Virus record (IMG/VR): IMGVR_UViG_3300033148_007227
Coordinates: 1-64,000 of that record
Length of the DNA: 64,000 bases
From: a virus
Direction: 5' to 3' (one strand)
Below, piece by piece: positions 1-50,230 of this stretch (position 1 is its first letter; each line of letters opens with the position of its first letter). The notes beneath the pieces are model-generated. The model did not search any database. It had not been told where the DNA came from and saw nothing but the letters and a program-made list of their open reading frames with translations. The position numbers and the translations under genes were made by a program.

Positions 1-210
1 GAGGCTGGAGCGAATATACATGCTAATGATGATTGCGCTCTCCGGTGGGCGGCTGAAAATGGGCATGTGGAAGTAGTAAAACTTTTACTCAATGCAGGTG
101 CAGATATACATGCTAAAGATGATTCTGCTCTCTGGTGGGCAATCAAAAACGATCACAAGGAAGTAGTGGAAATCTTACAGCAGGCTGGAAAGGAAAGGAG
201 AAAAAAATGA
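1..210 (+). CDS. Ankyrin-repeat protein, 5'-truncated by window edge
   Basis: Frame 1 reads EAGANIHANDDCALRWAAENGHVEVVKLLLNAGADIHAKDDSALWWAIKNDHKEVVEILQQAGKERRKK*; TGA at 208-210 overlaps the next ATG (ATGA). Confidence 0.9.
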   Translation, partial: EAGANIHANDDCALRWAAENGHVEVVKLLLNAGADIHAKDDSALWWAIKNDHKEVVEILQQAGKERRKK

Positions 211-698: not shown

Positions 699-1156
699 CA
701 AAAGAATCAATGCTGATAAATGCGGCACGTGAGGGTTTTGTTGAAACGGTAAGGAGTTTGCTCGATGCTGGCGCGAATATCCATGCTGGAGATAATTTTG
801 CTCTCCGTCATGCGGCTGGAGAAAATCATGCGGAAGTGGTAAAGCTCCTGCTCGATGCGGGGGCGGATGTCCGGTGGGCGGCTGAAAATGGGCATGTGGA
901 AGTAGTAAAACTTTTACTCAATGCAGGTGCAGATATACATGCTGACAATGATTATGCTCTTCAGTGGGCATCTGCATATGGTCATGTGGAAGTGGTAAAA
1001 ATCCTACTCGATGCTGGTGCAGATTTACATGCTGACAATGACTATGCTCTCCGCTTGGCAACTGAAAATGGGCACAAGGAAGTGGTGAAAATCCTACAAC
1101 AAGCTGAATCGGAAAGGAGAAAAAAATGTCAAAAGAATCAAAAGAATCAATGCTGA
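695..1156 (+). CDS. Ankyrin-repeat protein
   Basis: Same N-cap and repeats; one repeat has an in-frame deletion (DAGADV-RWAAENG). Confidence 0.92.
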   Translation: MTKESMLINAAREGFVETVRSLLDAGANIHAGDNFALRHAAGENHAEVVKLLLDAGADVRWAAENGHVEVVKLLLNAGADIHADNDYALQWASAYGHVEVVKILLDAGADLHADNDYALRLATENGHKEVVKILQQAESERRKKCQKNQKNQC

Positions 1157-1401
1157 TAAGTGCGGCATATGATGGGTGCATTGAAGAGGTAAGGAGTCTG
1201 CTCGATGCCGGTGCGGACGTACATGCTGAAGATGATTGCGCTCTTCAGTGGGTGGCTGAAGAAGGTCATGCAGACGTGGTGAAAATTTTGCTCGAAGCCG
1301 GAGCAAATATACATGCTTGCAATGATTACGCTCTCCATTGGGCAACCGAAAATGGTCACACGGAGGTGGTGGAAATTTTACAGCAGGCTGGAAAACAATA
1401 A
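1126..1401 (+). CDS. Short ankyrin-repeat protein
   Basis: MSKESKESMLISAA N-cap, two repeats, VVEILQQAG C-cap. Confidence 0.9.
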   Translation: MSKESKESMLISAAYDGCIEEVRSLLDAGADVHAEDDCALQWVAEEGHADVVKILLEAGANIHACNDYALHWATENGHTEVVEILQQAGKQ

Positions 1402-1434
1402 TCAATAGCTGAAATTGGAAAGGAGGACAAGATA

Positions 1435-1666
1435 ATGGAGATGGAGATCAAAAATACAGATTGTAAGATGATCTGTGTGTCTATTAGTGGTAATGTTCTA
1501 AAGAGTATGACTGTTGAGGTAGTGAGAAATATAGACGATCTGTAAGGGTTTGATTTAAATAAGGTCAACATGGAGGGTGAAATTGAAGGGATTTGATCTG
1601 TAAAGAGCAGACCTGCAAGGAGCTAAATTGAAGGAAACGGACCTGACAAACGTGGTATCAGACTAA
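1435..1666 (+). pseudogene. Decayed pentapeptide-repeat protein gene
   Basis: AGGAGG RBS and ATG 1435; reads MEMEIKNTD...DL*GFDLNKVNMEG/KLKGFDL*RADLQGAKLKETDLTNV with two in-frame TAA and one frameshift; A(D/N)Lxx periodicity. Confidence 0.6.
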
Positions 1667-1677
1667 AAGGAGAAGAA

Positions 1678-2661
1678 ATGAAAGCGAGTCAAATTAAGAT
1701 TGCTCTAAAGGTAGCAGTAAAAGCGAAAAAGCCTGTATTTTTATGGGGTAGTCCAGGAATCGGAAAATCAGATGTGGTGAGGCAGGTAGCACATGATAAT
1801 GGTCTTGAATTGATAGATGTGCGGGCTGTACTCCTAGACCCTGTTGATCTCAGAGGAATCCCAGCAATTAACGGAGATCATAAAGCTCATTGGTGTTCTC
1901 CAGCTTTTCTACCAACGGAAGGAAACGGGATACTCTTTCTCGATGAACTTAATGCAGCTCCTCCTCTAGTACAAGCCGCTTGTTATCAGCTTGTACTAGA
2001 TCGCAAGCTCGGAGAGTATAGTCTTCCTCCTGGATGGGCTGTTGTGTCGGCTGGGAACTTGGAGAGTGATAAGGCTATAACCCACAGGATGCCGTCTGCT
2101 TTAGCAAATCGTTTTGTTCATCTTTTGTTTGATGTGGATAGAGATGATTGGATAGAATGGGCTTTGACTGCGGATGTTGTAACAGAAGTGATTTCCTTCC
2201 TTCGATTTCGTGATAATCTTCTTCATTCTTTTGATCCTAAGAAAAATGAAAAAAGTTTTCCGACTCCGAGAGCATGGGAATACGTTTCTGATCTTATAAA
2301 AGAGGGAATACCGAAGGAGATTGAGTATGATTTGATCTCTGGAGCAGTGGGGGAAGGTGCGGCGGCTGAGTTTGTTGGATTTCTTCAAGTTTATCGAAAA
2401 CTGCCTGATCCTGATTTGGTGCTTGCAGACCCAAATAATGCTCCTGTACCTGAAGACCCTGCTACATTATATGCAATCTGTGGAGCTTTGGCAAGGAGGG
2501 CTTCTAATCAAACTGTAATTAACTTACTCAAATATGCCAATCGGCTTCCTGATGAGTTCTCAGTAGTGTTGATTAAAGACTCAAAAAATTACAACCCTGA
2601 TATAACCTTTTCAAGAGGTTTTATAGAGTGGGTATCAAAACACAAGGATGTTTTGATTTAA
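1678..2661 (+). CDS. MoxR-like AAA+ ATPase
   Basis: Walker A GSPGIGKS, Walker B ILFLDELN, sensor-1 SAGN, arginine finger ALANRF, TPRAW. Confidence 0.92.
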   Translation: MKASQIKIALKVAVKAKKPVFLWGSPGIGKSDVVRQVAHDNGLELIDVRAVLLDPVDLRGIPAINGDHKAHWCSPAFLPTEGNGILFLDELNAAPPLVQAACYQLVLDRKLGEYSLPPGWAVVSAGNLESDKAITHRMPSALANRFVHLLFDVDRDDWIEWALTADVVTEVISFLRFRDNLLHSFDPKKNEKSFPTPRAWEYVSDLIKEGIPKEIEYDLISGAVGEGAAAEFVGFLQVYRKLPDPDLVLADPNNAPVPEDPATLYAICGALARRASNQTVINLLKYANRLPDEFSVVLIKDSKNYNPDITFSRGFIEWVSKHKDVLI

Positions 2662-2828
2662 GTGAATCAGGGGAAAGGTGGTGATGTTTGGGATAGTAGA
2701 GCAAGGATTGTTTAAGTTCTTTTTTTAGGGGTTGCTAAAATAGACCCTTTGAGGTCCACCTGACTGAGGTTTTCTTCGGTTACTGATGATACAGAGAAAT
2801 GGATAAATTTCAAACAAAGGAGAAAAGA

Positions 2829-3857
2829 ATGAAATCGAAAGAACTGTCGGAAAAAGCAATGCTGGTAAACTTGCATATCAGTAATTGGTCAGGTCGTAAG
2901 TATGATAGAAGAGTCAGCGACATGGTGGCTGAAGAATATGGTGCTAAGCCAGAATCAGGTAGATATAACAAGTGTCTGGTAGCAAAAGATGCTATTGGGA
3001 AAGTGCAGAATATTGCTGTATTAGCTAGAAACTTTCATTATGAAAACACTCTGCCCTGGACTGATGAGGGGTCAAGAATATTACCAGTTAAAAACTTTGA
3101 CAATTATAGTAATAAACTCAGGAAGTATAGATCACAATACGAGGATGCAGTGCAAGAGTTTTGTGAGATTTATCCTACTCTTAAATCACAAGCAAAAGAT
3201 GACTTGGGAGAGTTATATAATCCTGACGACTATCCCTCTCCAGCAGATATTCCGGGAAAGTTTGATTTTCGGATCAACATCAGTCCTCTTCCTGTGTCTG
3301 ATGATTTTAGGGTAGCTTTGAATGAGGAAGATGTAAGTAAAATCAAAGATGAGATAGAGGAAAGATTGAAAGATGCACAAGACAAAGCTCTCAAAGACTT
3401 GTGGCACAGACTGTATGATGTTGTAGATAAGGTAGCTAATAGATTATCGGAGCCAGACAGAATAAATAAGAAAGGAGAAATCAAACCTCCGGTGTTCCGA
3501 AAATCTTTGATTGGGAACGTGGTGGAGTTGGTTGAGTTGCTTCCTAAACTCAACGTGACTGATGATCCTCGCCTGGAAGAGCTTCGTAAAGAAGTTGAGA
3601 AAAAATTGGCAGGTGTTGTTCCTGCTGATCTTAGGGAAGACTCTGAATATCGAAAACAGACTGCACAAGAGGCTAAGGAAATACTGAATAAAATGTCTGG
3701 ATATGTGGGTGACATCTCGGAAAAGAAAAAAGTTGAAGAGGAAAAAGAGGAAGAGGAGCAAAGTAACAGATTCCAGTGTGTTTGTGGTTTTAGATACTTA
3801 GAGGATTCTTGGCTTAAGTTCTGTCCAAAATGCAAAGAGCCAAGAGTAAAGAATTAA
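2829..3857 (+). CDS. DUF3150-like helical protein with C-terminal Zn ribbon
   Basis: ATG 2829 after AAGGAG; WSGRKYD...TLPW...YNPDDYP pattern typical of the gene found between phage AAA+ and vWA genes; CVCG...CPKC tail. Confidence 0.6.
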   Translation: MKSKELSEKAMLVNLHISNWSGRKYDRRVSDMVAEEYGAKPESGRYNKCLVAKDAIGKVQNIAVLARNFHYENTLPWTDEGSRILPVKNFDNYSNKLRKYRSQYEDAVQEFCEIYPTLKSQAKDDLGELYNPDDYPSPADIPGKFDFRINISPLPVSDDFRVALNEEDVSKIKDEIEERLKDAQDKALKDLWHRLYDVVDKVANRLSEPDRINKKGEIKPPVFRKSLIGNVVELVELLPKLNVTDDPRLEELRKEVEKKLAGVVPADLREDSEYRKQTAQEAKEILNKMSGYVGDISEKKKVEEEKEEEEQSNRFQCVCGFRYLEDSWLKFCPKCKEPRVKN

Positions 3858-3894
3858 ATGAGCTTATCAAAACAAAGTAAAAGAGAACAAAAAA

Positions 3895-5070
3895 ATGAAG
3901 AATGACAAAGCAGAAAAAAAGATCAGAAAGGCAAGGGTGGGTTTGATTCTTGAGCATCCTTTTTTTGGTTCTGTTGCTCTAAGACTCCTGCTTCTTGAAG
4001 ATACTCAGTGTGATACGATGTGGACTGATGGTGTGCATCTAGGCTATAATCCAATGTTCATCGAGAATCTGAGTTTAGGTGTCATCAAAGCAGGTGTAGC
4101 TCATGAGGTCATGCACATTGCTAGTTTTCATCACACAAGGAGACAAAACAGGGATCATCAACAGTGGAATGAGGCTGGTGATCTGGCAATTAATGGTATT
4201 CTTGATAATTGTAAATTTGAAATTCCTAAAGAGTGGCTTCTTGATCCTCAATATAAGGATAAAAGTACTGAGGAAATATATGCTCTAAGATATAGACCTC
4301 CTCAGCAGAAGAAGTCTGAAGGAAAGTTGGAAGTAGGAAATGGGTTAGGACAAGGATCAGAAAAAAGTCAAGAAGAGAAAATGATGACTTTTGGAGAGGT
4401 TAGGGATTATCCGGAAAAAGATGGAAGTGCTTCTTCTGAAGCTGAGTTGAGGAATCATGAAGCTAATGTTAAGGTGATTCTATCTCAAGCTATTCAGGCT
4501 GGTAAAAGTGCAGGATCATTATCTGCTGATTTGGAAAGATATGTTAAGGAATTACTTGATCCTAAACTTTCCTGGCAAGAGATATTGCGGAGATTTGTAG
4601 AGCAATCTGCAAAAAACGATTATTCCTGGTTCCCACCTAATAGGCGATATATTCACCAAGGACTATATCTTCCTTCCTGTCATTCAGACGAACTTGGAGA
4701 GATAGTGTTGGTTGTAGATACATCTGGTTCAATTGCTCAAAAGGAACTAGATGCTTTTGCGGCTGAGATAGGTGGGATTCTTGAAGAATTTCCTACTACG
4801 ACTCTCACAGTTATTTATTGTGATAGTCAAATAAGAAATATAGAAGAAATTACAGAACTTCCTTTAGAGCTTCATCCTAAAGGGGGAGGTGGAACCAGTT
4901 TTATACCTCCCTTCGAGTGGCTTGAGAAAGAAGGAAGAGAGCCTGTATGTTTTATATATCTTACAGACGGATGTTGTAATCTTTATCCAGAAGAACCAAA
5001 TTTTCCAGTTCTTTGGGTAGGTACTCAAGATTTTACTCCTAAATTTGGTGAATTTGTGAATTTGATTTAA
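3895..5070 (+). CDS. Putative metallopeptidase with vWA-like domain (DUF2201 family)
   Basis: HEVMH (HExxH), MIDAS VDTSGS, GGGGT, YLTDG. Confidence 0.9.
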   Translation: MKNDKAEKKIRKARVGLILEHPFFGSVALRLLLLEDTQCDTMWTDGVHLGYNPMFIENLSLGVIKAGVAHEVMHIASFHHTRRQNRDHQQWNEAGDLAINGILDNCKFEIPKEWLLDPQYKDKSTEEIYALRYRPPQQKKSEGKLEVGNGLGQGSEKSQEEKMMTFGEVRDYPEKDGSASSEAELRNHEANVKVILSQAIQAGKSAGSLSADLERYVKELLDPKLSWQEILRRFVEQSAKNDYSWFPPNRRYIHQGLYLPSCHSDELGEIVLVVDTSGSIAQKELDAFAAEIGGILEEFPTTTLTVIYCDSQIRNIEEITELPLELHPKGGGGTSFIPPFEWLEKEGREPVCFIYLTDGCCNLYPEEPNFPVLWVGTQDFTPKFGEFVNLI

Positions 5071-6120: not shown

Positions 6121-6182
6121 GAGTTTAAGAATGAAATGTGAATAAGAGTTTATTAATGAATTTAAGATTGAGGAGGATAAAA

Positions 6183-8804
6183 ATGGATAGTAATATAGAA
6201 AAGATTTTAAAAGTAAGATATTGTAGAGAAGGAGAGTCAACTTGGGAAGATGTAATTAAAAGAGTCTCTTGTGCTTTAGCTTGTAACGATTCAGAGAGAA
6301 TGATATTTGAAGAGTTGATGAGAGATAAATTATTCATTCCTAATTCTCCTACCTTATCAAATGCTGGAGTTGAAGGTGGTCAATTGTCTGCTTGTTTCGT
6401 TCTTCCAGTTGGGGATGATATAGATGAAATTTTTGATGCTTTGAAATACATGGCTAAGATTCATAAAAGTGGAGGAGGAACAGGATTTTCATTTTCAAAT
6501 TTAAGAGAAGAAGGAGCGTCTGTTAAAACTACTAGAGGGATAGCTTCTGGTCCTTTGAGTTTTATGAGAATATTCGATGCGGCAACTGAGGAGATAAAGC
6601 AAGGGGGAAGACGTAGAGGTGCTAATATGGGAGTTTTAGATGTAAGTCATCCTGATATAGAGAATTTCATACTTTCAAAATTAAGAGGTGGATTCAAAAA
6701 CTTTAACTTTTCGGTTATGGTAACTGATGATTTTATGAGGGCTGTAGAATCAGATATAGAGTGGGAACTTAGATCAATAGTGGATGAGACAATTATCAAG
6801 GTTTTAAAAGCTAGAAAAATTTGGAATTTGATGGTGGATTCAGCATGGAAATGTGGTGATCCTGGTATATTGTTTAAAGACGAAATTAACAGAAAGCATA
6901 CTTTATCTTCTGTAAGTTCTATTGAAGCTACTAATCCATGTGTAACTGGAGATACTTTAGTAGCGGTTGCAGATGGTAGAAATGCTGTTACAATCAAACA
7001 GCTTGCAAAAGAAGGAAAAGACGTTCCGGTTTTTTGTAAAGATGATAAAGGAAAAATTAAAGTAAGAATGATGAGAAATCCTAGATTGACCGGAAAGAAA
7101 AAGAGAATACTTAAAATTTATTTAGATAATGGAGACTTTATAAGATGTACTGAGAATCACAAATTTATATTAAGTGATGGTTCAATTAAGGAAGCTAAAA
7201 GTTTAGTTAAAAGTGATAGTTTAAGTATTATGACTAAAAGAATTGCTCCTTTTGAAAAAGTTATAGAAGGATCAAATAGTAAGTCTAATAATTATTGTTG
7301 GATTAATAATACTTTTGAGAAGGAATGGGTATTGGAACATAGACTTATTGCTAATCATTATTTTAAAGAAAGAACAAGGAAAAATGTGAGCTGGGAAAAT
7401 CATGTTGTTCATCATAAAGATTATAAAGGATTTAAGAAAAAAGCTTTAAAAAAACTTAAGGAATGTCAATCTAAGACCAATCTTGAATGTTATCTTGATA
7501 AAGATTCAGTTATGGTTAGAAAAATGTGTGAAGGATGTGGAAAGAAGTTTGATATTTCTTGGACAAAGAGAGAGGTTTGTTTTTGTAGTCATAAATGCTA
7601 TAAGAGTAATTATAAAGATAGTTTTGAAATTAGAAAAAAAGCAAATGGAAAGTTGAATAAAACTTGTTTTGAAAGAGGGAGAATAAAAAGGGATAAACAA
7701 GTTAAGGTTTTTCTTGATTTTAGAAAAGAATTAGGGAGAGTACCTTTTAAGAGTGAATGGGAAAAAAAGTGTGAATCTGAAGGAGTAAGTAACAGATTAA
7801 GAACAAAATATGGATTTTGGAATTATGGAGAACTGAAGGAATTTGCTTTAACTCACAATCATAGAGTAGATTCTATTGAATTTGATGGGTATGAAGATGT
7901 TTACAATGGAACAGTTGACGACTTTCATAATTTTTATATAGGTAATTTCGATGGTGATTTGGATGGTAGTTATTGTTATGTTAATGTTTTGCAATGTGGA
8001 GAGCAACCTCTTATGTTTTACGAAAGTTGTAATTTAGGATCAATGAATCTAGTCAAGTGTGTAGAAAATGGAAAGTTTGATTTTGAATTATTGAAAGAGA
8101 TAACGAAGAAATCTGTTTTGTTTTTGAATAGAGTAATAGATAATAATTGTTATCCACTCCCTCAAATAAAAGATATATCTTCTAAAACTAGAAAAATTGG
8201 GTTAGGTGTGATGGGTTTGGCTGATGCTCTGATTCTTTTGAAGATTAAGTATGGAAGTATGGAAAGTTTGGGTATAATAAATGATATTTTTAAAACTATT
8301 GCTGAAACTGGGTGGACAAGTTCAAGGAATCTGGTTGATGATGAAATCTATAGTGAACCTTTTTTATTGCATGATTCAATGGAGAAGAAGTTGTCTTTTC
8401 AGAGATTGGGGGCTATAAATTCAACTATTACGACTATAGCTCCTACAGGAACTATTTCAATTGTAGTAGGTGTTAGTTCAGGGATAGAGCCGTTATTCAA
8501 AGTTAAGTATAAGAGGAAGGATAGTTTCGGAGAGAGGGATGTAGTTCATCCTTTATTCGAGAAGATTAATTATAGTAAATATAAAAAATATGTTGTTACT
8601 GCTGAGGAATTAGATGCTGTGGATCACTTGAAAGTACAATCTACAATTCAGAAATGGATTGATAATGCTGTATCTAAAACTATTAATTTGCCTTTTGACG
8701 CTACTGTTGAAGATGTTAATGATATTTATATAAATGCTTGGAAAATGGGTTGTAAAGGGGTGACAGTTTTTCGTAGAGGTTCAAAGCAGGGTGTGTTGAG
8801 TTGA
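6183..8804 (+). CDS. nrdJ: Adenosylcobalamin-dependent (class II) ribonucleotide reductase, catalytic subunit, intein-containing
   Basis: ATG 6183 after GAGGAGG; PNSPTLSNAG, LSACFV, GGGTGF, QGGRRRGANM, TNP/CGEQPL, SCNLGS, IAPTGTIS, VSKTINLP, GCKGVTVFR. Confidence 0.93.
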   Translation: MDSNIEKILKVRYCREGESTWEDVIKRVSCALACNDSERMIFEELMRDKLFIPNSPTLSNAGVEGGQLSACFVLPVGDDIDEIFDALKYMAKIHKSGGGTGFSFSNLREEGASVKTTRGIASGPLSFMRIFDAATEEIKQGGRRRGANMGVLDVSHPDIENFILSKLRGGFKNFNFSVMVTDDFMRAVESDIEWELRSIVDETIIKVLKARKIWNLMVDSAWKCGDPGILFKDEINRKHTLSSVSSIEATNPCVTGDTLVAVADGRNAVTIKQLAKEGKDVPVFCKDDKGKIKVRMMRNPRLTGKKKRILKIYLDNGDFIRCTENHKFILSDGSIKEAKSLVKSDSLSIMTKRIAPFEKVIEGSNSKSNNYCWINNTFEKEWVLEHRLIANHYFKERTRKNVSWENHVVHHKDYKGFKKKALKKLKECQSKTNLECYLDKDSVMVRKMCEGCGKKFDISWTKREVCFCSHKCYKSNYKDSFEIRKKANGKLNKTCFERGRIKRDKQVKVFLDFRKELGRVPFKSEWEKKCESEGVSNRLRTKYGFWNYGELKEFALTHNHRVDSIEFDGYEDVYNGTVDDFHNFYIGNFDGDLDGSYCYVNVLQCGEQPLMFYESCNLGSMNLVKCVENGKFDFELLKEITKKSVLFLNRVIDNNCYPLPQIKDISSKTRKIGLGVMGLADALILLKIKYGSMESLGIINDIFKTIAETGWTSSRNLVDDEIYSEPFLLHDSMEKKLSFQRLGAINSTITTIAPTGTISIVVGVSSGIEPLFKVKYKRKDSFGERDVVHPLFEKINYSKYKKYVVTAEELDAVDHLKVQSTIQKWIDNAVSKTINLPFDATVEDVNDIYINAWKMGCKGVTVFRRGSKQGVLS
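6939..7994 (+). mobile_element. Intein (352 aa) in NrdJ with degenerate HNH-type endonuclease; C-terminal Gln
   Basis: Splits the NPCGEQ motif: TNP|CVTGDTLV...CTENHKF (block B)...VYNGTVDDFHNF (block F)...VNVLQ|CGEQPL. Confidence 0.9.
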
Positions 8805-9912: not shown

Positions 9913-9975
9913 TTGTTGATTTGGTTGTTTTTCAGGTGGAAAGCGCTTTAAAAAAGGAACTTAGTATATAAGTTT

Positions 9976-15814: not shown

Positions 15815-16219
15815 ATGAAAAAAATATATCAATCTGATAATAATATTTTAATGAATCCTCCAACATGGTTGCCAGAGGAGTATCATGAATGGTGGAAAGA
15901 TTTTTCTTTATATTTTCCATTTCTTATATCACAAGGTTGGAAATTTTCAATTCCTGTATTCAAAGGGTTATTAAAAAGATATCATTATGAAGTTTACAAG
16001 AATATATTTGGAGAATGGAGAAGTAAGTTTGACAGGATAGAAGAAGCAAAGAAATATTTGAAAGTAATATTATCACCTTATATTAGTGTTGATAATATAA
16101 GAACAAGAGATGTGGAAATAGTGGTAATTTTGGAAGAAGATGATGAATATATCAGAAACATCACTCCACAAAGAATATTTGGTGTAAACGTAAACTTTCA
16201 AATTGGAGAAGACTTTTGA
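15815..16219 (+). CDS. Hypothetical protein
   Basis: ORF in operon context; basic leader MKKIYQS. Confidence 0.7.
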   Translation: MKKIYQSDNNILMNPPTWLPEEYHEWWKDFSLYFPFLISQGWKFSIPVFKGLLKRYHYEVYKNIFGEWRSKFDRIEEAKKYLKVILSPYISVDNIRTRDVEIVVILEEDDEYIRNITPQRIFGVNVNFQIGEDF

Positions 16220-17592
16220 ATTTAATGGTGAAAAGTAAAGCATCACCTTTCAGGTTGGATGTTGCTGGAAGAAAAAAACTTTTAGAATTTTTTCAAGATT
16301 TTGATATGGATGGTTATATATCAGATATAAAGGTGAGAAGAATGATTCAAGAACCTGATAGTAAAAAAGGAACTGTGACTTATGGTGTAACTATTAGAGG
16401 TTATACTTCAGGAAATATTGATTTAGAAATTCCTTTAACTTTTGATGCAGATTTGAAAGAATTAAGCATTCCTGTTATAGCTTTCATAAATGGAAGAGCA
16501 ACTTTGATAAATCAAGGATTGATGGACAGTTTATTGTCGAGTTATAATTTTGAAAAGAAGTTTTATCCTGGATGGATGGATGTGTATAATTTAACTTCTC
16601 CAGCATCATATTTTATATATAATAGATTTAATGAAAGATATAGTAATAAAATAGGCAAAAAAATAACGAGAAAAAAAGAGTGGGAAGATTGTGTAAATGA
16701 TTTTTTAATAAATATGCTCTCAGGAAATAAAAGTGTTGGAAGAGTCTTTAAAAAGAAGATTAAAAATATAAGAGGAAGCAACGAAGACGAACTTACAAGT
16801 TTGATACTATCTTTTGGTTCAAGAATAAGATTAAGTTCTATTATAAATATATATGAATATACATTATCAAAAAAGTCAAATATAAATAAAATTTATAACG
16901 AGAATAGAGTAGTAAAGGCTGAAGACTTACCAGAATTTCCTGAATACAACCCATTAGATTTTATAGAAGATGAAGAAGAAAAAGATGAAGACTTACCAGA
17001 ATTTCCTGATTATAGTCCTCTTGATTTTATAGAAGAAGAACCGGAAGAGTTGGAGGTGATTCCCGTTCCTTCGGAATATGAAGAACAGGAATTTAAGGAT
17101 GTAGATATAGTAATTCCAGAGACTTACACTAAGATTGTTTATCCTGAACCTAGAGAATTAATAGAGTTGATTAGACTCTATAGGATTATAAGATTTACAT
17201 ATAAAAAGTTGAATGATGAGTGGGTGATGAGAACAGGAGAACCACATTATCTTTGGTTAACTAAAAAAGGTAATATTATCTGTATCTTATGGGATTATTA
17301 CAGGGGAAATTGGAGAGCTTTTGATATATCAAGAATGAAGGATGTAGAGGTTTATTATAGTGATAGATGGTTGCAGTTAGGACAATTTTTAGAAGTATTG
17401 GAAAATTTCAGACAGGAAGGTGCAGAAATAGGTTATGATTATACGGAGATTTTCTCTCCTAGAGGTCCTTATCACGATAGTTTAGTTTACGTGAGAGGTA
17501 ATTTAAAAAAGATGAATAGTAAGTTTGGTGAACCACTCAGAGGATTAGTGGATAACATGATAGAAAAAATTGAATTGTGTTTAGGAGGGTAA
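16216..17592 (+). CDS. Multi-module protein with C-terminal WYL-like domain
   Basis: IRFTYKK...RTGEPHYL...ILWDYYRGNWRAFDISRMKDV matches the WYL consensus; acidic duplicated linker. Confidence 0.75.
   Translation: MNLMVKSKASPFRLDVAGRKKLLEFFQDFDMDGYISDIKVRRMIQEPDSKKGTVTYGVTIRGYTSGNIDLEIPLTFDADLKELSIPVIAFINGRATLINQGLMDSLLSSYNFEKKFYPGWMDVYNLTSPASYFIYNRFNERYSNKIGKKITRKKEWEDCVNDFLINMLSGNKSVGRVFKKKIKNIRGSNEDELTSLILSFGSRIRLSSIINIYEYTLSKKSNINKIYNENRVVKAEDLPEFPEYNPLDFIEDEEEKDEDLPEFPDYSPLDFIEEEPEELEVIPVPSEYEEQEFKDVDIVIPETYTKIVYPEPRELIELIRLYRIIRFTYKKLNDEWVMRTGEPHYLWLTKKGNIICILWDYYRGNWRAFDISRMKDVEVYYSDRWLQLGQFLEVLENFRQEGAEIGYDYTEIFSPRGPYHDSLVYVRGNLKKMNSKFGEPLRGLVDNMIEKIELCLGG
16921..17009 (+). repeat. 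Intragenic direct repeat (EDLPEFPxYxPLDFIE twice)
   Basis: gaagacttaccagaatttcctga is identical at 16921 and 16987. Confidence 0.85.
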
Positions 17593-22975: not shown

Positions 22976-23061
22976 ACAATCGAAAATGACCATACGGAGA
23001 TAGTAAAAATTCTACAACAAGCTGATAATCAATAGCCAGAAAGGAAAGGAGAGAAAGAGAA

Positions 23062-35400: not shown

Positions 35401-36311
35401 AGAAGAAAAGTGATAAAGAAGCTAGGAAGATCATACTTGATTTATTTACAAAAGGAGCTTTGAAGAGGAGAGCTCAAGATGATGAAGAACTTCCTGATAA
35501 TTTGGGACAGGTAATAGAGGAGAATGTAGAGGTAGTGGATGTTCCCGGTTTAGTGGAGGAAGTTACTAATTATTATGTGGATGATATGGAAATGAGTCCT
35601 GAAGATGCCGCTACTGAGATAGTTGATGAATTTGTAGAAAGTGATGCTCCTGATGAAATAAAAGATGAAATAAAGAAAGAAGTGGAGGATATTGCAGAAA
35701 CAGTTGAAGCTGAAACACAGGAGGTTGTGGAAGAAGAGATGGAAGATGTGAGGGAAAAGGTTGATGAGATAGCTGATAAGGTTCCTTCGATGGAAGAGAT
35801 GGGAATAGATGAAGAGGAGATTGAAGTTGCATCTTCCAGAAGAGCGAAGGAATTAAATAAAGCTTTTAGAGATAAATTCTATAGAGCTTTAAAACTTGCG
35901 GCTACAAGACAACTTTTAAACATAGATACTTCCGGTCTCTTTGCTATAAAGGACGAGCTTTGTGAGGAATTGATTCATCCTCATGGAAAGTTCGGAGGTT
36001 TGAAGACAGACACGGCTCTTGATATCATTGAAAGGTCTTTTAGAAAGGTTCTTTCATCAGAGGCTATAGATGAATTTATAAAGTCGGCTGAAAGATTAAT
36101 GGAAATGAATGATGATGCTTTCAATCAGATCGAAGATGATATTAGGAATCTTTCCCCTGTAAGTGTATCGGGGATGTCTGACAAAGAAAAGGAAGCTAGT
36201 AAAAATGACTTGACTGTTGTGGGAAGAACTGGTTCTGGAATTTATAGTGATGAGAATTTTAAAGATTTAGTCAAGAAATCTTTACCTGGTTTTGGACTAG
36301 ACAAAAGTTAA
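32415..36311 (+). CDS. Prohead maturation protease fused to multiple modules and an acidic scaffold-like C-terminus
   Basis: N-terminal PNCNGDAF, FIEH, FSMGCSV..TVCNVC..FCNH, FDEISAVGDPADEGA (HK97/assemblin-type protease pattern); lies between portal and capsid genes. Confidence 0.8.
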   Translation: MRKINSISEEVRLLPSIAARNEKGRLNIQEAINIVADKYKLSKNPDDYEYMVLIALHADEPNCNGDAFTLEELERFDPKYGCKVYQSFTLKPHFIEHRQDGEVYGFVLDSHLEKPKEGNAYVELCIAVDKTKDPVYGEMVKNGEVDKFSMGCSVDYTVCNVCGNESYDEASFCNHILNHKMSTFKVADENGNEEEKLAYEKCFGVVFDEISAVGDPADEGALKQETLKAAMKKRFKKLEKLSKKKAQNDFDIDELLWEELKEYVGAIISKYGDEIRYDLDKIDELLWKEYRINVEDTGFDLGKLVSEYLMEREGKKDRKSKKSRYEGSLSSFGGDVFEIIKDKSDLLDSPLKPLKFDNESVVIHFGYEGINYYMSFERYRVRGPVTLFQVSISATGDGITGVIGLSGNIYSDPHDVASDLMNALVAYEQFGDVRDAGTVKSIRKLRNRKKKSQKWVDWGIKEDKPKEIFGKSKVSFSESELRSIAKNLIREGLSKTKVIETLMRLSNITPFATAEQIVEDIMYMVADKKKVGAQSSFSRNQGHIKKVSRLIKKYREETERKEWALVSKDDASKILKWFGPEKPSKEEVQKEEQRVQYFKSKGRKIKKVQNSEATNYKYWMHTVSGDVYAVGVNERGEVVESVGPLYYKEYQEFQPEDFRHNMITEDNEWFNENSEDFVLKSSRKKAQVPDENVVPSEKERGWLLNLSQDITTGEVTDEFSAQQWFRDKYNREPNYGEQENMRSLFSKKGLKNRFLKKKKLDESGVYGKTLNKNRRNKMRERTRSVRKTPVSRTVESKILRNRKGRSLENNKRRNLRNRKSAKDLVKKEYYIEGIDKRATDVRYPNYRDWKITVLGNGKVKFVRLGNDRRTSFRKVLKAGDERRFAENVLDDLVRKGLAFVVKKYGFGRFKSILEDGTIDRGTGSLSPREDRLTSDGITDKKDYSLKNMKDQVSDDGYWDKMSGRRYRRKGLKLNKWRFIKAKKLARALERLYEKYEKKSDKEARKIILDLFTKGALKRRAQDDEELPDNLGQVIEENVEVVDVPGLVEEVTNYYVDDMEMSPEDAATEIVDEFVESDAPDEIKDEIKKEVEDIAETVEAETQEVVEEEMEDVREKVDEIADKVPSMEEMGIDEEEIEVASSRRAKELNKAFRDKFYRALKLAATRQLLNIDTSGLFAIKDELCEELIHPHGKFGGLKTDTALDIIERSFRKVLSSEAIDEFIKSAERLMEMNDDAFNQIEDDIRNLSPVSVSGMSDKEKEASKNDLTVVGRTGSGIYSDENFKDLVKKSLPGFGLDKS

Positions 36312-36327
36312 TAGGAGGTAATAAAAA

Positions 36328-37014: not shown

Positions 37015-37046
37015 GGTTCTAAAAAGTTAATAGGAGGTAATTAAAA

Positions 37047-38099
37047 ATGCGAAAGAATCCTTATAGAGAATATAAGTCTGGTAGAACAGGAAAGTTATGG
37101 GAGGAAGACCCTTTTGAGAAGGATTTTGATAGAAATGGTGAGCTTAATGCTTGGGATAATAAAGATGCTGGAAATAGAATTAGTGATATTTTAAGAAGAG
37201 CTTCTTCTCAAAAAACTGAAGTTATACGTAAATCTTTAGTAGGAGAAGACGTTAGGCGACGTGTGCTTACTGCGGCGGCTAAAGACCCTCAAGAGGGGAT
37301 GAAGGTTATAGCTCAGACTCTTGGAGAAGTTGTTTACAAGATCGTGGACTATGCTGGATGGACTCGAAAGGTTCTGGATGTTGTTACTCTGAATCAGGGT
37401 GAAATATTTAGAATCCCGAAAGATGTTGATGTTCTTGGTTGGGTTGTTGCTGGTGATGGTCAAACCATAGTTTCACAGCTTCGTTCAAAGTATGTTTTCC
37501 CTGGTGAGTTCAAGAATACAGCCTTTGTGGAGATTGATATACTTGATATCGTACAGGCTAATTGGGATATTTTTGATCGTGGTGTGGATCGTGCGGCTCA
37601 GCAGATAATGAGAGGTGAGGATGTTCGGGCACAACAGCTTTTGGATAGGGTTGGTAGAACTGTCAATGATGTTGTTACCTACGCGACTTTGAATCTTAAT
37701 GTCTTTGAAGACGTGAGATTTCAGGTTGAAAGACACAGGCTGACTTGTGATAAGTTCATCATCTCAAGAAGTGAACTTTCTGACATAGTTAAAACTATGT
37801 CCACGGAAGTTGATTTTGTTACTCAGAGAGAGTTGATCCTAGCAGGTTATATTGGGAATGTTCTGAATTGTCAGATCATTACATCTGCTGGTATTGGAGT
37901 AGAGGAGGTTGTTCCTCCTGGTAGGATTTATGCTGTTACTGAGGGTAAGTATCTCGGAAGGCTTGGTGAAAGATTATCACTTCAGAGTGAAGAGTATAAT
38001 ACTCTTGTGAGAAACGAGATTAAGAAGGGTGTTGCTCAGTACGAGATTATTGGTCTTGGTAACGGTAACAGTAAGGCTGTGGCTATCGGTTCTAAGTAA
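37047..38099 (+). CDS. Major capsid protein (HK97 fold)
   Basis: 350 aa, strong AGGAGG RBS, DYAGWTRKVLDV, QIMRGED, VTQRELILAGYIG, VPPGRIY; gene order. Confidence 0.85.
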   Translation: MRKNPYREYKSGRTGKLWEEDPFEKDFDRNGELNAWDNKDAGNRISDILRRASSQKTEVIRKSLVGEDVRRRVLTAAAKDPQEGMKVIAQTLGEVVYKIVDYAGWTRKVLDVVTLNQGEIFRIPKDVDVLGWVVAGDGQTIVSQLRSKYVFPGEFKNTAFVEIDILDIVQANWDIFDRGVDRAAQQIMRGEDVRAQQLLDRVGRTVNDVVTYATLNLNVFEDVRFQVERHRLTCDKFIISRSELSDIVKTMSTEVDFVTQRELILAGYIGNVLNCQIITSAGIGVEEVVPPGRIYAVTEGKYLGRLGERLSLQSEEYNTLVRNEIKKGVAQYEIIGLGNGNSKAVAIGSK

Positions 38100-38125
38100 A
38101 GTTTTTAAGTTTTAATTGGAACAAT

Positions 38126-38169
38126 ACCTTTGTCTTCATGAGGAAGATAAAGAGGTGGGTGAAAATCCC
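38126..38169 (+). other. Two adjacent RNA hairpins after MCP (terminator/structured leader candidate)
   Basis: CTTTGTCTTC-atgag-GAAGATAAAG stem, then GGG-tgaaaat-CCC. Confidence 0.5.
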
Positions 38170-38189
38170 TGATCGAATAATGAAAGAAG

Positions 38190-39068
38190 ATGGAAAATTC
38201 AAAAAAGAGTGTTCAAGTTGTAGATTTAATATATCGAAGGTTAGAGCCTACGAGACCAGGCAAAGCCAGAAAATTATTAGGTTCAGGAAAAGCAAAGTTA
38301 TTAGATGAGGGATTGCCTTTAATTCAACTACAGAAAAAAGTATTCAAAAAGGAGGATACGAAAATGGATCGAAGGAGTATTGAAAGTTATTTTAAGGAAA
38401 ATGATGAAGTATACGTTCAAAATATTTCGGGAGGAGTAGTATCAATGAGTTTTTATTCTGGTCAAAGACCTGAACCTTTTACTCTTCCTAATGATAGAAG
38501 ACCTATAAATCTTTCTGATTATATGACTAAGGAGATAATTAAAAGTTCTCCTGATTTTAGAAAGTTGGTTATGCGGAGACCTCCTGCACTCAGGTTGCTT
38601 ACTGTTGAACAATATGAAAATACTATAAGGAAGATTGCAAAAGAAACTTCTAAAGAACCTGATGATATAGTAGAAGAAATTGCTGAAAAGATCAGTAAGC
38701 ATAGGAGTAAAGAACTTGAACCTTTAAAAGAAGAAAAAGATAGTTTGAAAATGGATGTTATGGAAACTCCTATGGATGAGGGTGTAGAAGATAATGATTT
38801 AGAAATTCCTGGAACTGCTGATACAGGGTTAAATCCTAGAGTGTTACAGATAATTTCTCAAACTTCTTCTTTGTCTGAAAATAGGATGAAAGCTTCTGAA
38901 GTGATTGATGAGCTTGGAAAGTTGAATCTGACTGTTGATGAATACAATTATGTAATTGGTGGTTGTGGTTATAAGACAGTTGTGGCTTGGGCGCAGAAAA
39001 GACTTTCAGTATTACAGAAAGAACAAAGTGAGGAAACTACAGAGAAGAATGATAATATTGAGTCGTAA
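38190..39068 (+). CDS. Post-capsid virion protein with N-terminal PLMP/RRXRR-like extension
   Basis: VQVVDLIYRRLEPTRPGKARKLLGSGKAKLLDEGLPLIQL; second in-frame ATG at 38364 with GGAGG RBS. Confidence 0.75.
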   Translation: MENSKKSVQVVDLIYRRLEPTRPGKARKLLGSGKAKLLDEGLPLIQLQKKVFKKEDTKMDRRSIESYFKENDEVYVQNISGGVVSMSFYSGQRPEPFTLPNDRRPINLSDYMTKEIIKSSPDFRKLVMRRPPALRLLTVEQYENTIRKIAKETSKEPDDIVEEIAEKISKHRSKELEPLKEEKDSLKMDVMETPMDEGVEDNDLEIPGTADTGLNPRVLQIISQTSSLSENRMKASEVIDELGKLNLTVDEYNYVIGGCGYKTVVAWAQKRLSVLQKEQSEETTEKNDNIES

Positions 39069-45282: not shown

Positions 45283-46221
45283 TTGTCTGATATAATAACA
45301 GGATTCGAGAGACTGAGTGATTTTGTAAGAAGCACTTTTGTTTCTAGGATATCAGAATTTTTTAGTGCTCAAGATGGATTTTTAAGAGCTGTAGTTTCTG
45401 AAGTTCCAAATATAGAAAAGTATGAGATAACGGAAAATCAGGAAAGATTTTCAAGTTCAGTTCATATTCAGAGATATTTTGCTGATCTTTTTGAAAAATT
45501 ACCTTTGATAGCTATAACAACTACAGGAGCCAGACAAGCTTTCAATCAGGTGGGAATACAGGAATTTATGAATGAATATAATCCAGTTGTAATATCATCT
45601 TTGGATGCTCCTTACACTTTAGCCGATCAGGATGATCTTGTAGTAAAAATTAATGGTGTAGAATATACTATAATTTTTGAAAGTATAATGTTTGATGATA
45701 TTACAGATGTTTCTATTAAAGAGTTTAAGGATGTTGTGGATCAACTATTAATTTTTTTGAGGTCTTATGACGTAGAAGGAAAGTTGGCTCTTAGAGATGT
45801 TTATTCAAGACCACTTGAGATAGTGGGTGGTTCAGCAGTGACAAAGTTAGGTTTTACAAGTGGTCAAACTCCTGCTAATACTTTTATAAAATATTCTTTA
45901 ATTTCTGAATCTATGGAAGCAGTTGTGGATATTGTAACTTCTGATAGAAATCAAAGAGTGGAAATTATGGATTTACTTTCTTCACTTTTTGGATTCTATG
46001 TTTTTGATAGATATCTTGGGCAATGGTTGGAGGAGGAAGGTTTTATATTCTTTACAACTAATTATAGTAGGAGAGGAGAATCTGAAACTTTTTTGGATAA
46101 TGCTCCTGTGGAAAAATTGTATTTTGATACTTTATCTATTCCGGTTAGAGCGTTTGTTCAAATTGATAGAGAGGAAAATTTTGAAGAATTGAATATATCG
46201 AAAGAAGGAATTATTCTGTGA
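45283..46221 (+). CDS. Tail completion/terminator protein candidate
   Basis: LPLIAIT...VDIVTSDRNQRVEIMDLL pattern; immediately upstream of sheath. Confidence 0.55.
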   Translation: MSDIITGFERLSDFVRSTFVSRISEFFSAQDGFLRAVVSEVPNIEKYEITENQERFSSSVHIQRYFADLFEKLPLIAITTTGARQAFNQVGIQEFMNEYNPVVISSLDAPYTLADQDDLVVKINGVEYTIIFESIMFDDITDVSIKEFKDVVDQLLIFLRSYDVEGKLALRDVYSRPLEIVGGSAVTKLGFTSGQTPANTFIKYSLISESMEAVVDIVTSDRNQRVEIMDLLSSLFGFYVFDRYLGQWLEEEGFIFFTTNYSRRGESETFLDNAPVEKLYFDTLSIPVRAFVQIDREENFEELNISKEGIIL

Positions 46222-46223
46222 TT

Positions 46224-46255
46224 TTTAAAATTTTTTCAGTAAATTAGGTTATCAT
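46224..46255 (+). promoter_or_regulatory. Putative late promoter upstream of the tail operon
   Basis: TTTAAA-attttttcagtaaattaggt-TATCAT (20-nt spacer). Confidence 0.55.
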
Positions 46256-46361
46256 AGAGAGTGTAAAAAGGAACTTTCTGAAACTTGATATTTATATTCA
46301 AATAGCTTCAAAGATGATTGGGATATTAAGCTAAGTTTCAGTAGTTAAGGAGATTGCTTAA

Positions 46362-46493
46362 ATGTAAAAAATTTTTGTGGTTGATAGGAAAGGAAAGTCA
46401 TTTCTTTCGACTTGTTCTACAAGAGCAAGATTATTATTGAAGAAAAATAAAGCTAAAATTATATATGGTTTTCCATTCGTAATTCAGTTGTAA
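46362..46493 (+). pseudogene. PLMP/RRXRR-like relic (IscB/IsrB N-terminal domain)
   Basis: AAGGAG RBS, then M*KIFVVDRKGKSFLSTCSTRARLLLKKNKAKIIYGFPFVIQL*; in frame with the sheath ATG. Confidence 0.7.
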
Positions 46494-46520
46494 ATTGAAT
46501 AAAAAGGGAGGTCATGTAAG

Positions 46521-48521
46521 ATGACACAATATATTGAGCCTGGAACTTATATAACTGAGTTGTTTAAACCTCAAGCTGTTATTCCTCCTGGTTTGGGTTT
46601 GAATCTAGTTATTGTAGGAGTAGGGAGTAAACAAAAGTCTATAGTCAATGAGGAAGTTTTGAGAGGAGGAATATATAATGAACTTTTGACTGTGTCCGGT
46701 ACGTCTCCTCATTCAGCTACGTTGGTTAATACTTCAGATCAGAAAAAGGAAAACACAACTATTTATGCTGATGGAATTGCTCTGACTTTGGATCAGTGGC
46801 AGTTTAATTCTGCTACTGAGGTTCAGATTCTTGATGCTTATTTTAATTCAGGAGCTACTTATACAATAGATTATGTAGCGATTGATTCATATATTGATGA
46901 TCTTGATAATGAAATTCAAAGTGTGGATAAGGTGGGTTTGTTTTCTGGAAGTTCAAATTACAAAGAAAATGAGGATTTTCAAATAACAGGTGGTGATATT
47001 GATTGGACAATATTAACTGATGCGGAGTTTACTGGATTAAATACTGAAACTTTTGATGTATCTACCAATAAAAATTTGAAGCTGAGTTTAGATGGAAAAC
47101 CTTCTATAACGATTGATGTTTCTGCGACCGCATCTGATCCTGCAAATGCGACTGCGACTGAGATTGTTACTGACATTAATGCGGCTTTGGTGGCAAGTGG
47201 AGATTATGGAGCTGATTATGGATCGGTTGCTTCTGATGTTGGTGGAAAAGTTAAACTTACTGCTCCAGGTCTTGATCCTTATGTCGGGATCAATTCTATA
47301 ATAACTTTGTTTACCACAACTGATTCTGCTCTTGATACAATTTTTGGTTTGTCTGAAGATGATGCTCCTTATGAGTATAGAGGAACAGGAAAGAGACCTT
47401 TAGCTGGTCAAACATATTTTGTGGATTATAAAATAACTAGACCTAGCTCAGATTATAATAAAGTAAGACAATTTAATAATGATATTGATTTTTACAATGA
47501 CATAGGTTACCCGGCTGAGGGTAATACATTGGCTAATGCGGGAGAGTTGGCTTGGTCAAGAGGTGTTTTAACTCTGTTTGTTGTTCAGGTGGAAGATGCT
47601 GATGATGATGGGGTTTATACAAATTCTGATTTTATTACTGCAATTGATGCTCTTGTGGATGAGAGAGAGGCTACTGATATTGTGGTCTTGAGAAGTAATG
47701 CTACGATAAGAGCAAAGGTGAGAGATGTACTTACAAATGAGAGTGCGCAACTGAAATCAAACTATAAGAGATATTGGTGTGGGATGCCAAGAGGATCATC
47801 TTTGGGAGATGTAGATACTCCTGATACGGCTATTTGGGTGGCCCAGAGAGAGTTTTCTGTCACCCCTGATTCAGTAGCAAGAGGAAGATTTATAGTTATC
47901 TTTCCTTCTGATTTACAACAGACGATTGTTGAGAATACAACAGAAAAAATTCTTGATGTTGATTCTAATTATATGGCTACGATTCTTGCGGCCGAGACTG
48001 TAAGTTTTGAAAATGCAAGTAATAGTCTCTTTGGAAAAACTTTCTCAGGGTTGACAGTTGAAAATAATCTCAGTAAGGCTGATATGAGATTTGCGGCGGC
48101 TAACGGTATAACTTGTGTTTTCCAGGAAGGGGGAGTATTGAAGTTGTTTGATGTTCTTACTACCGATGCTTCCGGGGATGCAAGATATGAAGAACCTTCA
48201 AGCTCTACACAGAAAGATAATTTAGCTTTCAAAATGATTGATGCTATTGATAATAATTTAAAAGGGATAGTACCTGATAATCCTTCAGAATTTGTTGGTA
48301 CTATTAAAGCGGTTGCTGGAGGAGTTATACTTGGAGAAATTGAATCTGGTAATATTGGATACTATACAGATGATGATGGGAATGTGAGAGATATAGATTA
48401 TAATGTTGATCTAGTAGCTTTCAGAGAAGCTGGTGATCCTAGAAATTATCGGTTGAGATACTACTTTAATTTGAGATATGTTGCTAAGAGATTCTTTGGT
48501 GAGTTCACCGTTACGATTTAA
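46521..48521 (+). CDS. Contractile tail sheath protein
   Basis: MTQYIEPGTYITE N-terminus, 666 aa, AANGIT...DVLTTD, YYFNLRYVAKRF C-terminus. Confidence 0.88.
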   Translation: MTQYIEPGTYITELFKPQAVIPPGLGLNLVIVGVGSKQKSIVNEEVLRGGIYNELLTVSGTSPHSATLVNTSDQKKENTTIYADGIALTLDQWQFNSATEVQILDAYFNSGATYTIDYVAIDSYIDDLDNEIQSVDKVGLFSGSSNYKENEDFQITGGDIDWTILTDAEFTGLNTETFDVSTNKNLKLSLDGKPSITIDVSATASDPANATATEIVTDINAALVASGDYGADYGSVASDVGGKVKLTAPGLDPYVGINSIITLFTTTDSALDTIFGLSEDDAPYEYRGTGKRPLAGQTYFVDYKITRPSSDYNKVRQFNNDIDFYNDIGYPAEGNTLANAGELAWSRGVLTLFVVQVEDADDDGVYTNSDFITAIDALVDEREATDIVVLRSNATIRAKVRDVLTNESAQLKSNYKRYWCGMPRGSSLGDVDTPDTAIWVAQREFSVTPDSVARGRFIVIFPSDLQQTIVENTTEKILDVDSNYMATILAAETVSFENASNSLFGKTFSGLTVENNLSKADMRFAAANGITCVFQEGGVLKLFDVLTTDASGDARYEEPSSSTQKDNLAFKMIDAIDNNLKGIVPDNPSEFVGTIKAVAGGVILGEIESGNIGYYTDDDGNVRDIDYNVDLVAFREAGDPRNYRLRYYFNLRYVAKRFFGEFTVTI

Positions 48522-49305: not shown

Positions 49306-49833
49306 ATGGGAGACATTTTAAAAGATTTAGGTGAACTGTTTTTGAAGGGTTTTGTGGAAGATGAAGTTGAGATTTCCGGGTTCAAATTCAAATTGAGAAC
49401 TCTTGATGAACAAGAATCTATATGGAGAGATAAATACACTGATCTCTCCATGAATACTTCTTTTTTATCATCCAGGAGAGTTCCTACATTGGCTATATCT
49501 ATTCGGGAAATTAATGGAAAAAAAGTTAAAGATATAGTTGATATTAGTGAAGAAGAAAAGAAGAAGTATGAAGATAAAGAAGATAATTATAAGTATTTGG
49601 TAGCAGAGAAAGTTAAAGATTTTCTTCTTGAAGCTCCTCCTTCATTCATTGATAAACTCTGGTCTAAGTATCAGGAATTGGAAAGTAGATCATCTACGTT
49701 TTTGGGGGATATAAAAGACCCTGAGTTTTTTCGTAAAGAGGGGAAAGGAAAATCCCCTTCTAATGATGAAACTGGAAGTGATGAAGCAAATGAATCTGCT
49801 CCCAACGGAGGAGAGAGTAGGCAAGCTCTCTGA
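49306..49833 (+). CDS. Tail assembly chaperone (G-like)
   Basis: Between tube and tape measure; FKLRTL..E, LAISIREING, IDKLWSKYQEL. Confidence 0.75.
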   Translation: MGDILKDLGELFLKGFVEDEVEISGFKFKLRTLDEQESIWRDKYTDLSMNTSFLSSRRVPTLAISIREINGKKVKDIVDISEEEKKKYEDKEDNYKYLVAEKVKDFLLEAPPSFIDKLWSKYQELESRSSTFLGDIKDPEFFRKEGKGKSPSNDETGSDEANESAPNGGESRQAL

Positions 49834-50230
49834 TTTTCAATGGATAATTTTATATAAATATATTCAGGAAAGAAAAAATAATGAATTGGAAAATTATCTT
49901 ACTATCATTCATAGAGTTCTCGGTACTGATGTTTTGGGAGATGATAAACTGATTCCTCTAACAGCGTTTATGAATGTGGATATGTTCAAAGAATTAATTA
50001 AGCAAAGAGAGATAGATGGAGAAGTGGATTCTGATCTTCTATCAGAAGATATAGACCTGAAAGCTCAACAGATGTTTGAGAGTGATATAGAAGGAGCTTT
50101 TACAGAGGAAGATTGGAAGAAGATGGAAGAATATGAAATGAAGAAAAGAGAAGAATGGGAACGTCTTGAAAAAATAGCAGGAATAAAAGTGATTGAAAAA
50201 GGTGAGGACATAGAAGATGCCTCCGACTAA
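49763..50230 (+). CDS. Tail assembly chaperone second ORF (T-like; probably reached by frameshift)
   Basis: Overlaps the G-like ORF; frame open from 49715; LLPTEERV..LSDFQW. Confidence 0.7.
   Translation: MMKLEVMKQMNLLPTEERVGKLSDFQWIILYKYIQERKNNELENYLTIIHRVLGTDVLGDDKLIPLTAFMNVDMFKELIKQREIDGEVDSDLLSEDIDLKAQQMFESDIEGAFTEEDWKKMEEYEMKKREEWERLEKIAGIKVIEKGEDIEDASD

Follow-up and report, generated by a model that had tools for sequence, protein, structure and literature searches.

A PLMP-only reading frame, probably derived from an IscB gene, in the leader of a putative phage tail sheath gene

To our knowledge, PLMP domains have been described solely at the front end of two transposon nucleases, IscB and IsrB. 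In IsrB the domain contacts the terminal hairpin of the omega-RNA and the Shine-Dalgarno sequence of its own gene, and resembles the N-domain of initiation factor 3 (IF3) (PMC9581776). The DNA analysed here (the window) is the first 64 kb of an IMG/VR virus record (IMGVR_UViG_3300033148_007227) of 103,855 bases, which was judged to hold ~47% of the genome. This large, uncultured phage carries the PLMP domain twice without a nuclease, once within a head-region protein, where it is conserved, and once as a free-standing cassette of 43 codons that lies in the 5′ leader of a sheath-like gene. The cassette is the subject of this report. It probably derives from an IscB gene, holds only the PLMP domain and is now probably dead or inert. 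The elements of the leader and of the gene behind it are as follows.

46223..46236, plus strand: AT-rich promoter-like motif TTTTAAAATTTTTT, just 3′ of the stop of a 312-residue gene, at the start of a 299-nucleotide (nt) gap
46250-55, plus strand: TATCAT hexamer downstream of the AT-rich motif
46272..46346, plus strand: imperfect stem-loop (outer AACT/AGTT, 9-bp arms, inner AGCTT/AAGCT)
46278-46286 and 46333-46341, plus strand: 9-bp inverted repeat, CTGAAACTT and AAGTTTCAG
46304-08 and 46328-32, plus strand: inner pair, AGCTT and AAGCT
46347..46352, plus strand: Shine-Dalgarno sequence AAGGAG, 9 nt 5′ of ATG 46362
46362 (ATG) and 46365-67 (TAA), plus strand: start followed by stop; this is a start-stop, or else codon 2 of the 43-codon open reading frame (ORF) has suffered a nonsense mutation
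46368..46490, plus strand: PLMP coding stretch of 41 codons, a complete fold of four strands and one helix
46377, plus strand: GTG opening a 38-residue ORF inside the 41-codon stretch
46491-93, plus strand: TAA immediately following the fold's last residue (IQL)
46500-02, plus strand: TAA in frame, 3 codons further on
46506-12, plus strand: GGGAGGT, the sheath-like gene's own ribosome site
46521 (ATG) to 48521 (end), plus strand: sheath-like gene of 666 residues

The repeat, inner pair, AAGGAG, ATG, TAA, GTG, IQL-TAA and sheath ATG had all been listed by an earlier prediction made from the letters of the window, and every one was found where that prediction placed it. The sheath ATG at 46521 lies in the frame of the PLMP ORF, 10 codons past the L codon of IQL, again as described.

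IscB-type affinity of the sheath-leader reading frame

The original prediction had also noted that the PLMP-like segment was missed by the ORF track. Profile, structure and fold searches all identified it as a real PLMP homologue. The 38-residue ORF matched Pfam RRXRR (PF14239, in which the PLMP part is positions 1-50) with E 6.1e-5 and 23.4 bits over profile positions 4-40, just below the cut-off of 25 bits. A single-sequence search of the PDB with the 41 residues gave eight matches, all of them IscB and all aligned end-to-end on the PLMP domain. An AlphaFold2 (AF2) model built on an alignment of 18 PLMP sequences had a predicted local distance difference test score (pLDDT) of 90.5, with strands at residues 2-5, 11-15, 30-33 and 37-40 and a helix at 17-25. 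This model was compared with IscB PLMP chains in Foldseek (template-modelling score, TM, 0.85-0.94; root-mean-square deviation 0.6-1.2 Å; 36-42% identity over 41 residues), and IsrB and the IF3 N-domain ranked below IscB. The frame directly after the codon-2 TAA reads K-I-F-V-V-D-R-K-G-K and fits the first PLMP strand (compare M-S-K-V-Y-V-I-D-R-N-G-K in P0151, a PLMP-only ORF described below). In strand 2 the P-L-M-P motif is replaced by S-F-L-S, and both prolines are gone. A word-based protein search with the 41-residue piece returned no match. The stretch 46368-46490 encodes a true IscB-type PLMP domain, with a similarity far beyond chance. A six-frame RRXRR match that ran on to profile position 62, with two TAA inside it, was rejected; its extension is a coincidence, and the YIEPGTYI there is conserved in relatives without PLMP.

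The type of the domain was assessed with two hidden Markov models (HMMs), one of them (IscB-type) built from 22 PLMPs followed by a RuvC-I motif and the other from the domain of the phage's head-region protein and its homologues (post-capsid type). The sheath-leader PLMP scored 54.2 bits on the IscB-type HMM versus 26.0 on the post-capsid-type HMM; the window's post-capsid domain scored 34.4 and 69.9 bits, respectively. A tree built from 49 columns united the post-capsid type in one clade (Shimodaira-Hasegawa-like approximate likelihood ratio test, SH-aLRT, 92). The sheath-leader copy was not part of that clade; its closest neighbours were solo PLMP ORFs, and its terminal branch was long (1.79 versus a median of 0.36). 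An approximately unbiased (AU) test did not reject a single clade of the sheath-leader copy and the post-capsid type (p 0.64). The tree alone, with its 49 usable columns, does not settle the origin of the sheath-leader PLMP.

A scan for the pattern of the helix motif matched one viral contig, L022 (IMGVR_UViG_3300015370_000023), which is unrelated and AT-rich. It carries an intact IscB of 416 residues with a HEARO RNA (86.6 bits) at 836-2372. This IscB lies between the virion structural genes phrog_6123 and phrog_2729, on the same strand as both, with gaps of 15 nt and 5 nt. Its PLMP and that of the sheath leader are 46% identical, with a run of 11 identical residues. In PHROGs, the large ‘HNH endonuclease’ families phrog_119 and phrog_2214 are of the phage-borne IscB kind. 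Since IscB elements occur in phage structural modules, an IscB-derived origin of the cassette is a natural one, and the descent from an OMEGA element that had been proposed for it is plausible, given the IscB-type score and the intact IscB with HEARO between virion genes in L022. The two loci share the AT-rich phage context, the strand of the neighbouring virion genes and the 46% identical PLMP. They differ in extent: L022 holds a whole 1.5-kb element (226-nt HEARO plus full nuclease), whereas the window holds ~140 nt of leader and the first domain only.

The sheath-leader PLMP has the fold of the IscB and IsrB PLMP domains (PDB 9K30, 7UTN, 7XHT, 8DMB), with homology over 41 residues, and it follows immediately on a hairpin and Shine-Dalgarno sequence, as real iscB and isrB starts do. 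Unlike IscB and IsrB, the cassette is without RuvC, bridge helix, HNH, TI domain and HEARO, has the S-F-L-S motif, and consists of 43 codons, the second of which is a stop. The IF3 N-domain has a similar small alpha/beta fold (Foldseek; PMC9581776), but at TM 0.49-0.56 and E ~1. PLMP-only ORFs also occur in metagenomes. A cluster of such ORFs of 61-66 residues (P0151, P0152, P0009, P0072) is found on more than 400 contigs, the longest of 108 kb, and the nearest genome relatives of the 61-residue form are only full-length IscB genes of Selenomonas/Veillonellaceae. The sheath-leader copy resembles stand-alone PLMPs (the 61-residue P0151 cluster; P0043, P0072, P0143) in length class, in a stop shortly after IQL and in a degenerate motif, but those ORFs are intact and this one has TAA at codon 2.

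No RuvC was found in the record; the ORF ends right after IQL, and 27 nt are left to the sheath ATG. The 103.8-kb record held no HNH, no Y1 transposase TnpA (PF01797) and no TnpB-type (PF07282) match. HEARO/omega-RNA (RF02033) gave no match at E <=10 in 45900-46600 and none at the gathering score in the window. The absence of HEARO is meaningful because the same search detects it at real IscB loci, with 86-134 bits directly upstream of full-length IscB in L003, L004 and L022. A HEARO of 211 nt is also too long for the 140-nt leader unless it overlaps the conserved upstream gene. Rfam showed nothing relevant at the leader of either PLMP copy. The leader stem AACT...AGTT was considered as the ‘ACCT...AGGT’ hairpin of omega-RNA and dropped, as those bases pair elsewhere in the HEARO alignment of L022.

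The stem-loop itself is present as predicted, its 3′ end 1 nt short of the Shine-Dalgarno sequence, but it is no better than chance. Its minimum free energy is -12.8 kcal/mol (z -1.25), and 22 of 200 shuffled sequences folded equally well. Perfect 9-bp inverted repeats with loops of <=60 nt number 39 in the window versus ~27 in shuffles. In strength, the AAGGAG site before ATG 46362 ranks with those of the upper third of genes in the window; no such site precedes GTG 46377. The motif TTTWAAAWTTTTT has 4 matches in the window versus 0.35 expected (seen at 9975, 32358 and 46223), all in plus-strand gaps before large genes, and the copy at 46223..46236 may be a promoter. A second ATGTAA, out of frame, occupies 46514-46519, downstream of the sheath ribosome site and upstream of the sheath ATG; finding two in a 299-nt leader is a little unusual (roughly 0.26 expected). 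At the sheath start, a CAT/ATG mini-hairpin of 3 bp was set aside as chance, and it is not conserved in the related contigs L006 or L007.

The post-capsid protein and the sheath loci of relatives

A PLMP profile search of the 103.8-kb record, run in six frames, returned only two matches. One is the sheath-leader copy. The other lies in the gene after the capsid gene, which has the following features here and in related contigs.

38126-38169, plus strand: leader element with covarying stems, ACCT-hairpin-AGAGGT and then a hairpin of 3 bp whose 7-nt loop is TGAAAWW
L006 11095-11140; L005 11158-11195; L007 11081-11116 and 11489-11529: the same leader element in relatives
38190..39068, plus strand: post-capsid protein of 292 residues, PLMP-like domain at residues 8-47, a fusion free of stops
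38347-38366, plus strand: internal start, AAGGAGG and ATG 38364
L005 11393, L006 11333, L007 11724: the corresponding internal starts in relatives

The original prediction had read this copy as truncated at the same IQL boundary. Its frame in fact continues without a stop into the conserved 292-residue protein. Three related contigs have exactly one PLMP match each, at the N-terminus of a gene of 283-300 residues after the capsid gene. The domain was present in 13/13 post-capsid homologues, with the signature V-x-V-T-D, F-L-E-S-T-R-P-G-K-A-R and P-P-x-I-Q-L. AF2 models of it had pLDDT 84-88, and the best PDB matches of the whole model were IscB, IsrB and IF3-N. The 38190 copy is thus the conserved, folded N-terminal domain of a family of ~290-residue proteins and not a relic, and the idea that the two loci are similar outcomes of a recurrent collapse is not supported, given this 13-member family. 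The post-capsid PLMP-fusion family was not found in the literature searched.

Within this family a Met ~10 residues after I-Q-L is nearly invariant, AAGGAGG-like DNA precedes it in 4/4 phages, and the linker residues differ. An internal start is therefore conserved in the post-capsid gene, and its first ATG (38190) is without a ribosome site. The arrangement suggests that the gene may be read as two isoforms, with and without PLMP. In L007, two copies of the leader element surround an extra ORF of 102 residues between the capsid and PLMP genes. A covariance model of the post-capsid leader had its sole good match at 38120-38178 (E 5e-8) and nothing on the plus strand of the sheath leader; its best other matches were at 36278 (E 0.65) and 49713 (E 1.3). 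The latter (49713-49764) falls where ORFs 49306-49833 and 49763-50230 overlap, shortly upstream of the tape measure gene. With GAGTTTTTTCG and a GGGG...CCCC hairpin, it may be a frameshift site of tail assembly chaperones.

Both the sheath-leader copy and the post-capsid family have a nuclease-free PLMP in the late region, and in both a strong ribosome site and ATG follow in the same frame, 10-11 codons further on. Conservation in 13/13, fusion without a stop, a signature of its own and a covarying leader belong to the post-capsid family only; the sheath-leader copy has none of these.

Capsid homologues were plentiful; the closest relative (P0163/P0282, on a 14.8-kb contig) has a capsid 85% identical, and further homologues range over 74-85%. 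Three related viral contigs and two metagenome contigs were compared. Sheath loci were compared at four sites from two lineages, of which L007, L014 and L016 are nearly identical at the site. The sheath ATG follows the upstream gene by 18 nt in L007, L014 and L016 and by ~66 nt in L006/L015. The PLMP profile had no match at any of these loci, and the relatives' sheath proteins begin at the same conserved YI(E/P)PGTYI, without an extension. A short gap without PLMP in two relative lineages makes the cassette of ~240-300 nt lineage-specific, an insertion, or a unique retention, in the lineage of the window. A conserved PLMP/RNA-leader unit of late operons, one of the two explanations first offered, is not supported: the gap of 18-66 nt at these loci holds no PLMP, and the covariance model finds no second copy of the post-capsid leader element in the sheath leader of the window. 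DNA similar to the cassette was found nowhere else in the genome. INPHARED phages gave no match by blastn or tblastn, and viral contigs scanned with the sheath protein and with the solo PLMPs P0143, P0009, P0043 and P0014 yielded no relatives.

Origin and present state of the cassette

We consider it probable that the sheath-leader cassette is an IscB-derived, PLMP-only remnant, now dead or inert. The ~240-300 nt at 46222-46505 would be a lineage-specific insertion in the sheath 5′ leader, and the inserted DNA would be a cassette from the front end of an IscB-type (OMEGA) gene, namely stem-loop, ribosome site and PLMP-only ORF. A phage-borne IscB element, or a fragment of one, may have landed in the leader and been cut down to its PLMP module. 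The clean boundaries suggest that the module was perhaps once made as a free protein of 43 residues; the codon-2 TAA would now block normal translation. At present the cassette would most likely ride along in the leader of the sheath mRNA, inert or decaying and outside any conserved control unit. That it is probably dead is indicated by the codon-2 stop behind the only ribosome site, the lost prolines, the long branch, the absence in relatives, and a hairpin that is at chance level and unlike the post-capsid leader.

Several observations weigh against this reading. Random deletion of iscB would rarely end at a domain boundary while sparing the ribosome site and the whole fold. The 41 PLMP codons are without frameshift or internal stop, and in-frame codon use is typical of the phage (0.757, versus 0.635 and 0.532 off frame; 52nd percentile of its genes). 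The clean frame and the codon use fit a gene that is still translated or was until recently, although phage-like codon use would also be expected from a phage-borne, AT-rich donor like that in L022. Re-initiation at the GTG, 10 nt past ATG-TAA, could yield a peptide of 38 residues. The codon-2 TAA was read from one metagenome assembly. One DNA run, a hydrothermal vent metagenome, holds near-identical contigs of this phage (151-162 nt, a small share), none of which spans 46223-46623, and no RNA sequencing run is listed as holding it. The relatives compared include none with >85% capsid identity.

The main alternative, possible though doubtful, is that the cassette makes a working stand-alone PLMP mini-protein, which would bind the RNA hairpin by the Shine-Dalgarno sequence and tune late-gene translation. 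It would be made from GTG 46377 by re-initiation after ATG-TAA, or from the ATG if the TAA were an assembly error or a polymorphism, and by analogy with the PLMP of IsrB its RNA target might be its own leader or that of the post-capsid PLMP gene. The complete fold with its clean stop, a strong ribosome site of its own, phage-like in-frame codon use and a hairpin that ends 1 nt before the Shine-Dalgarno sequence are what such a protein would show. Its proposed action has a precedent in IsrB, where a PLMP that is similar to the IF3 N-domain touches both the Shine-Dalgarno sequence and the terminal hairpin (PMC9581776). PLMP-only ORFs also exist elsewhere (the 61-residue cluster on >400 contigs of up to 108 kb), the solo forms are nearest in the tree, and the same phage family retains a PLMP domain with a strong internal start 10-11 codons beyond it. 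Against this reading, codon 2 is TAA, and a start at the GTG, which lacks a ribosome site, would cost the fold part of its first strand. Moreover, the cassette is missing at the sheath loci of two relative lineages, its hairpin is at chance level and does not match the conserved post-capsid leader element, and both prolines of the PLMP motif are lost. An extended form of this reading, which we think unlikely, would have two PLMP types recruited independently in one phage as small IF3-N-like RNA switches that act on the hairpin and Shine-Dalgarno region, each standing in frame 10-11 codons ahead of the strong ribosome site of a major late structural gene; the sheath copy would then be a second, free-standing version of an undescribed translational control module from a Cas9 ancestor.

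Two further readings tie the cassette to a neighbouring or related gene. It might be an old duplicate of the post-capsid N-terminal domain, moved before the sheath gene together with linker and start region. Each copy is indeed followed, in frame and after 10-11 codons, by a strong ribosome site and ATG, the first motif proline is missing as in the post-capsid type, and the AU test (p 0.64) does not reject a single clade. This origin is nevertheless very unlikely in view of 26 bits on the post-capsid HMM versus 54 bits on the IscB-type HMM, the absence of the TRPGKAR and PPxIQL signatures, an identity of just 34-40% to the 38190 copy, the lack of intragenomic DNA similarity and a free tree that leaves the copy out of the post-capsid clade (SH-aLRT 92). 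That the PLMP is an optional N-terminal extension of the sheath protein, made by TAA read-through or recoding, is hardly credible. The PLMP ORF is in the sheath frame with a spacing like that of the fused post-capsid gene, but three in-frame TAA would have to be passed. TAA is the commonest stop of the phage (30/54 genes), so read-through into the sheath gene is not expected; and the relatives' sheaths start at YI(E/P)PGTYI.

If the cassette is a leftover, as we favour, it would record an invasion of phage late-gene clusters by IscB and its whittling down to one domain, and would suggest how the conserved post-capsid fusion arose. Should the cassette function, no smaller derivative of a Cas9-ancestor gene would be known, and its role would be a new one, as an RNA-binding regulator.

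Gene context and other features of the window

All genes of the window are on the plus strand; its GC content is ~34%, with a strong excess of G over C. The late block runs from the major head gene through the gene of the 292-residue protein and several unknown genes to the 312-residue gene and the sheath-like gene of 666 residues. The sheath-like gene is followed on its 3′ side by a gene of 158 residues, an overlapping gene pair and the tape measure gene (phrog_167).

37047-38099, plus strand: major head protein (phrog_2522)
45283-46221, plus strand: gene of 312 residues, directly upstream of the sheath leader

The 666-residue protein received no name from Pfam, PHROGs or PDB profiles. Gene order, the conserved N-terminal YIEPGTYI and structural matches in the Atlas to Phage_sheath clusters support its assignment as a putative tail sheath protein.

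Near-identical ribosome-site blocks of 22 nt, agttaataggaggtaat[a/t]aaaa, stand at 36306-36327 and 37025-37046, before the ATG of a 228-residue gene and of the major head gene, respectively. At the other end of the window, ankyrin-repeat genes (135-698 and 695-1156) lie within a GC-richer stretch (44%; window positions 1-1700), and ankyrin-like sequence also occurs in the unannotated 1157-1400 and at 22976 (22976-23040). A MoxR-like AAA ATPase, an unknown gene and a DUF2201 metallopeptidase/VWA-like protein are encoded in a row at 1678-5070. The large subunit of ribonucleotide reductase (6138-8804) is split by an intein (Intein_splicing, residues 277-601), and a WYL-domain protein is encoded at 16216-17592.

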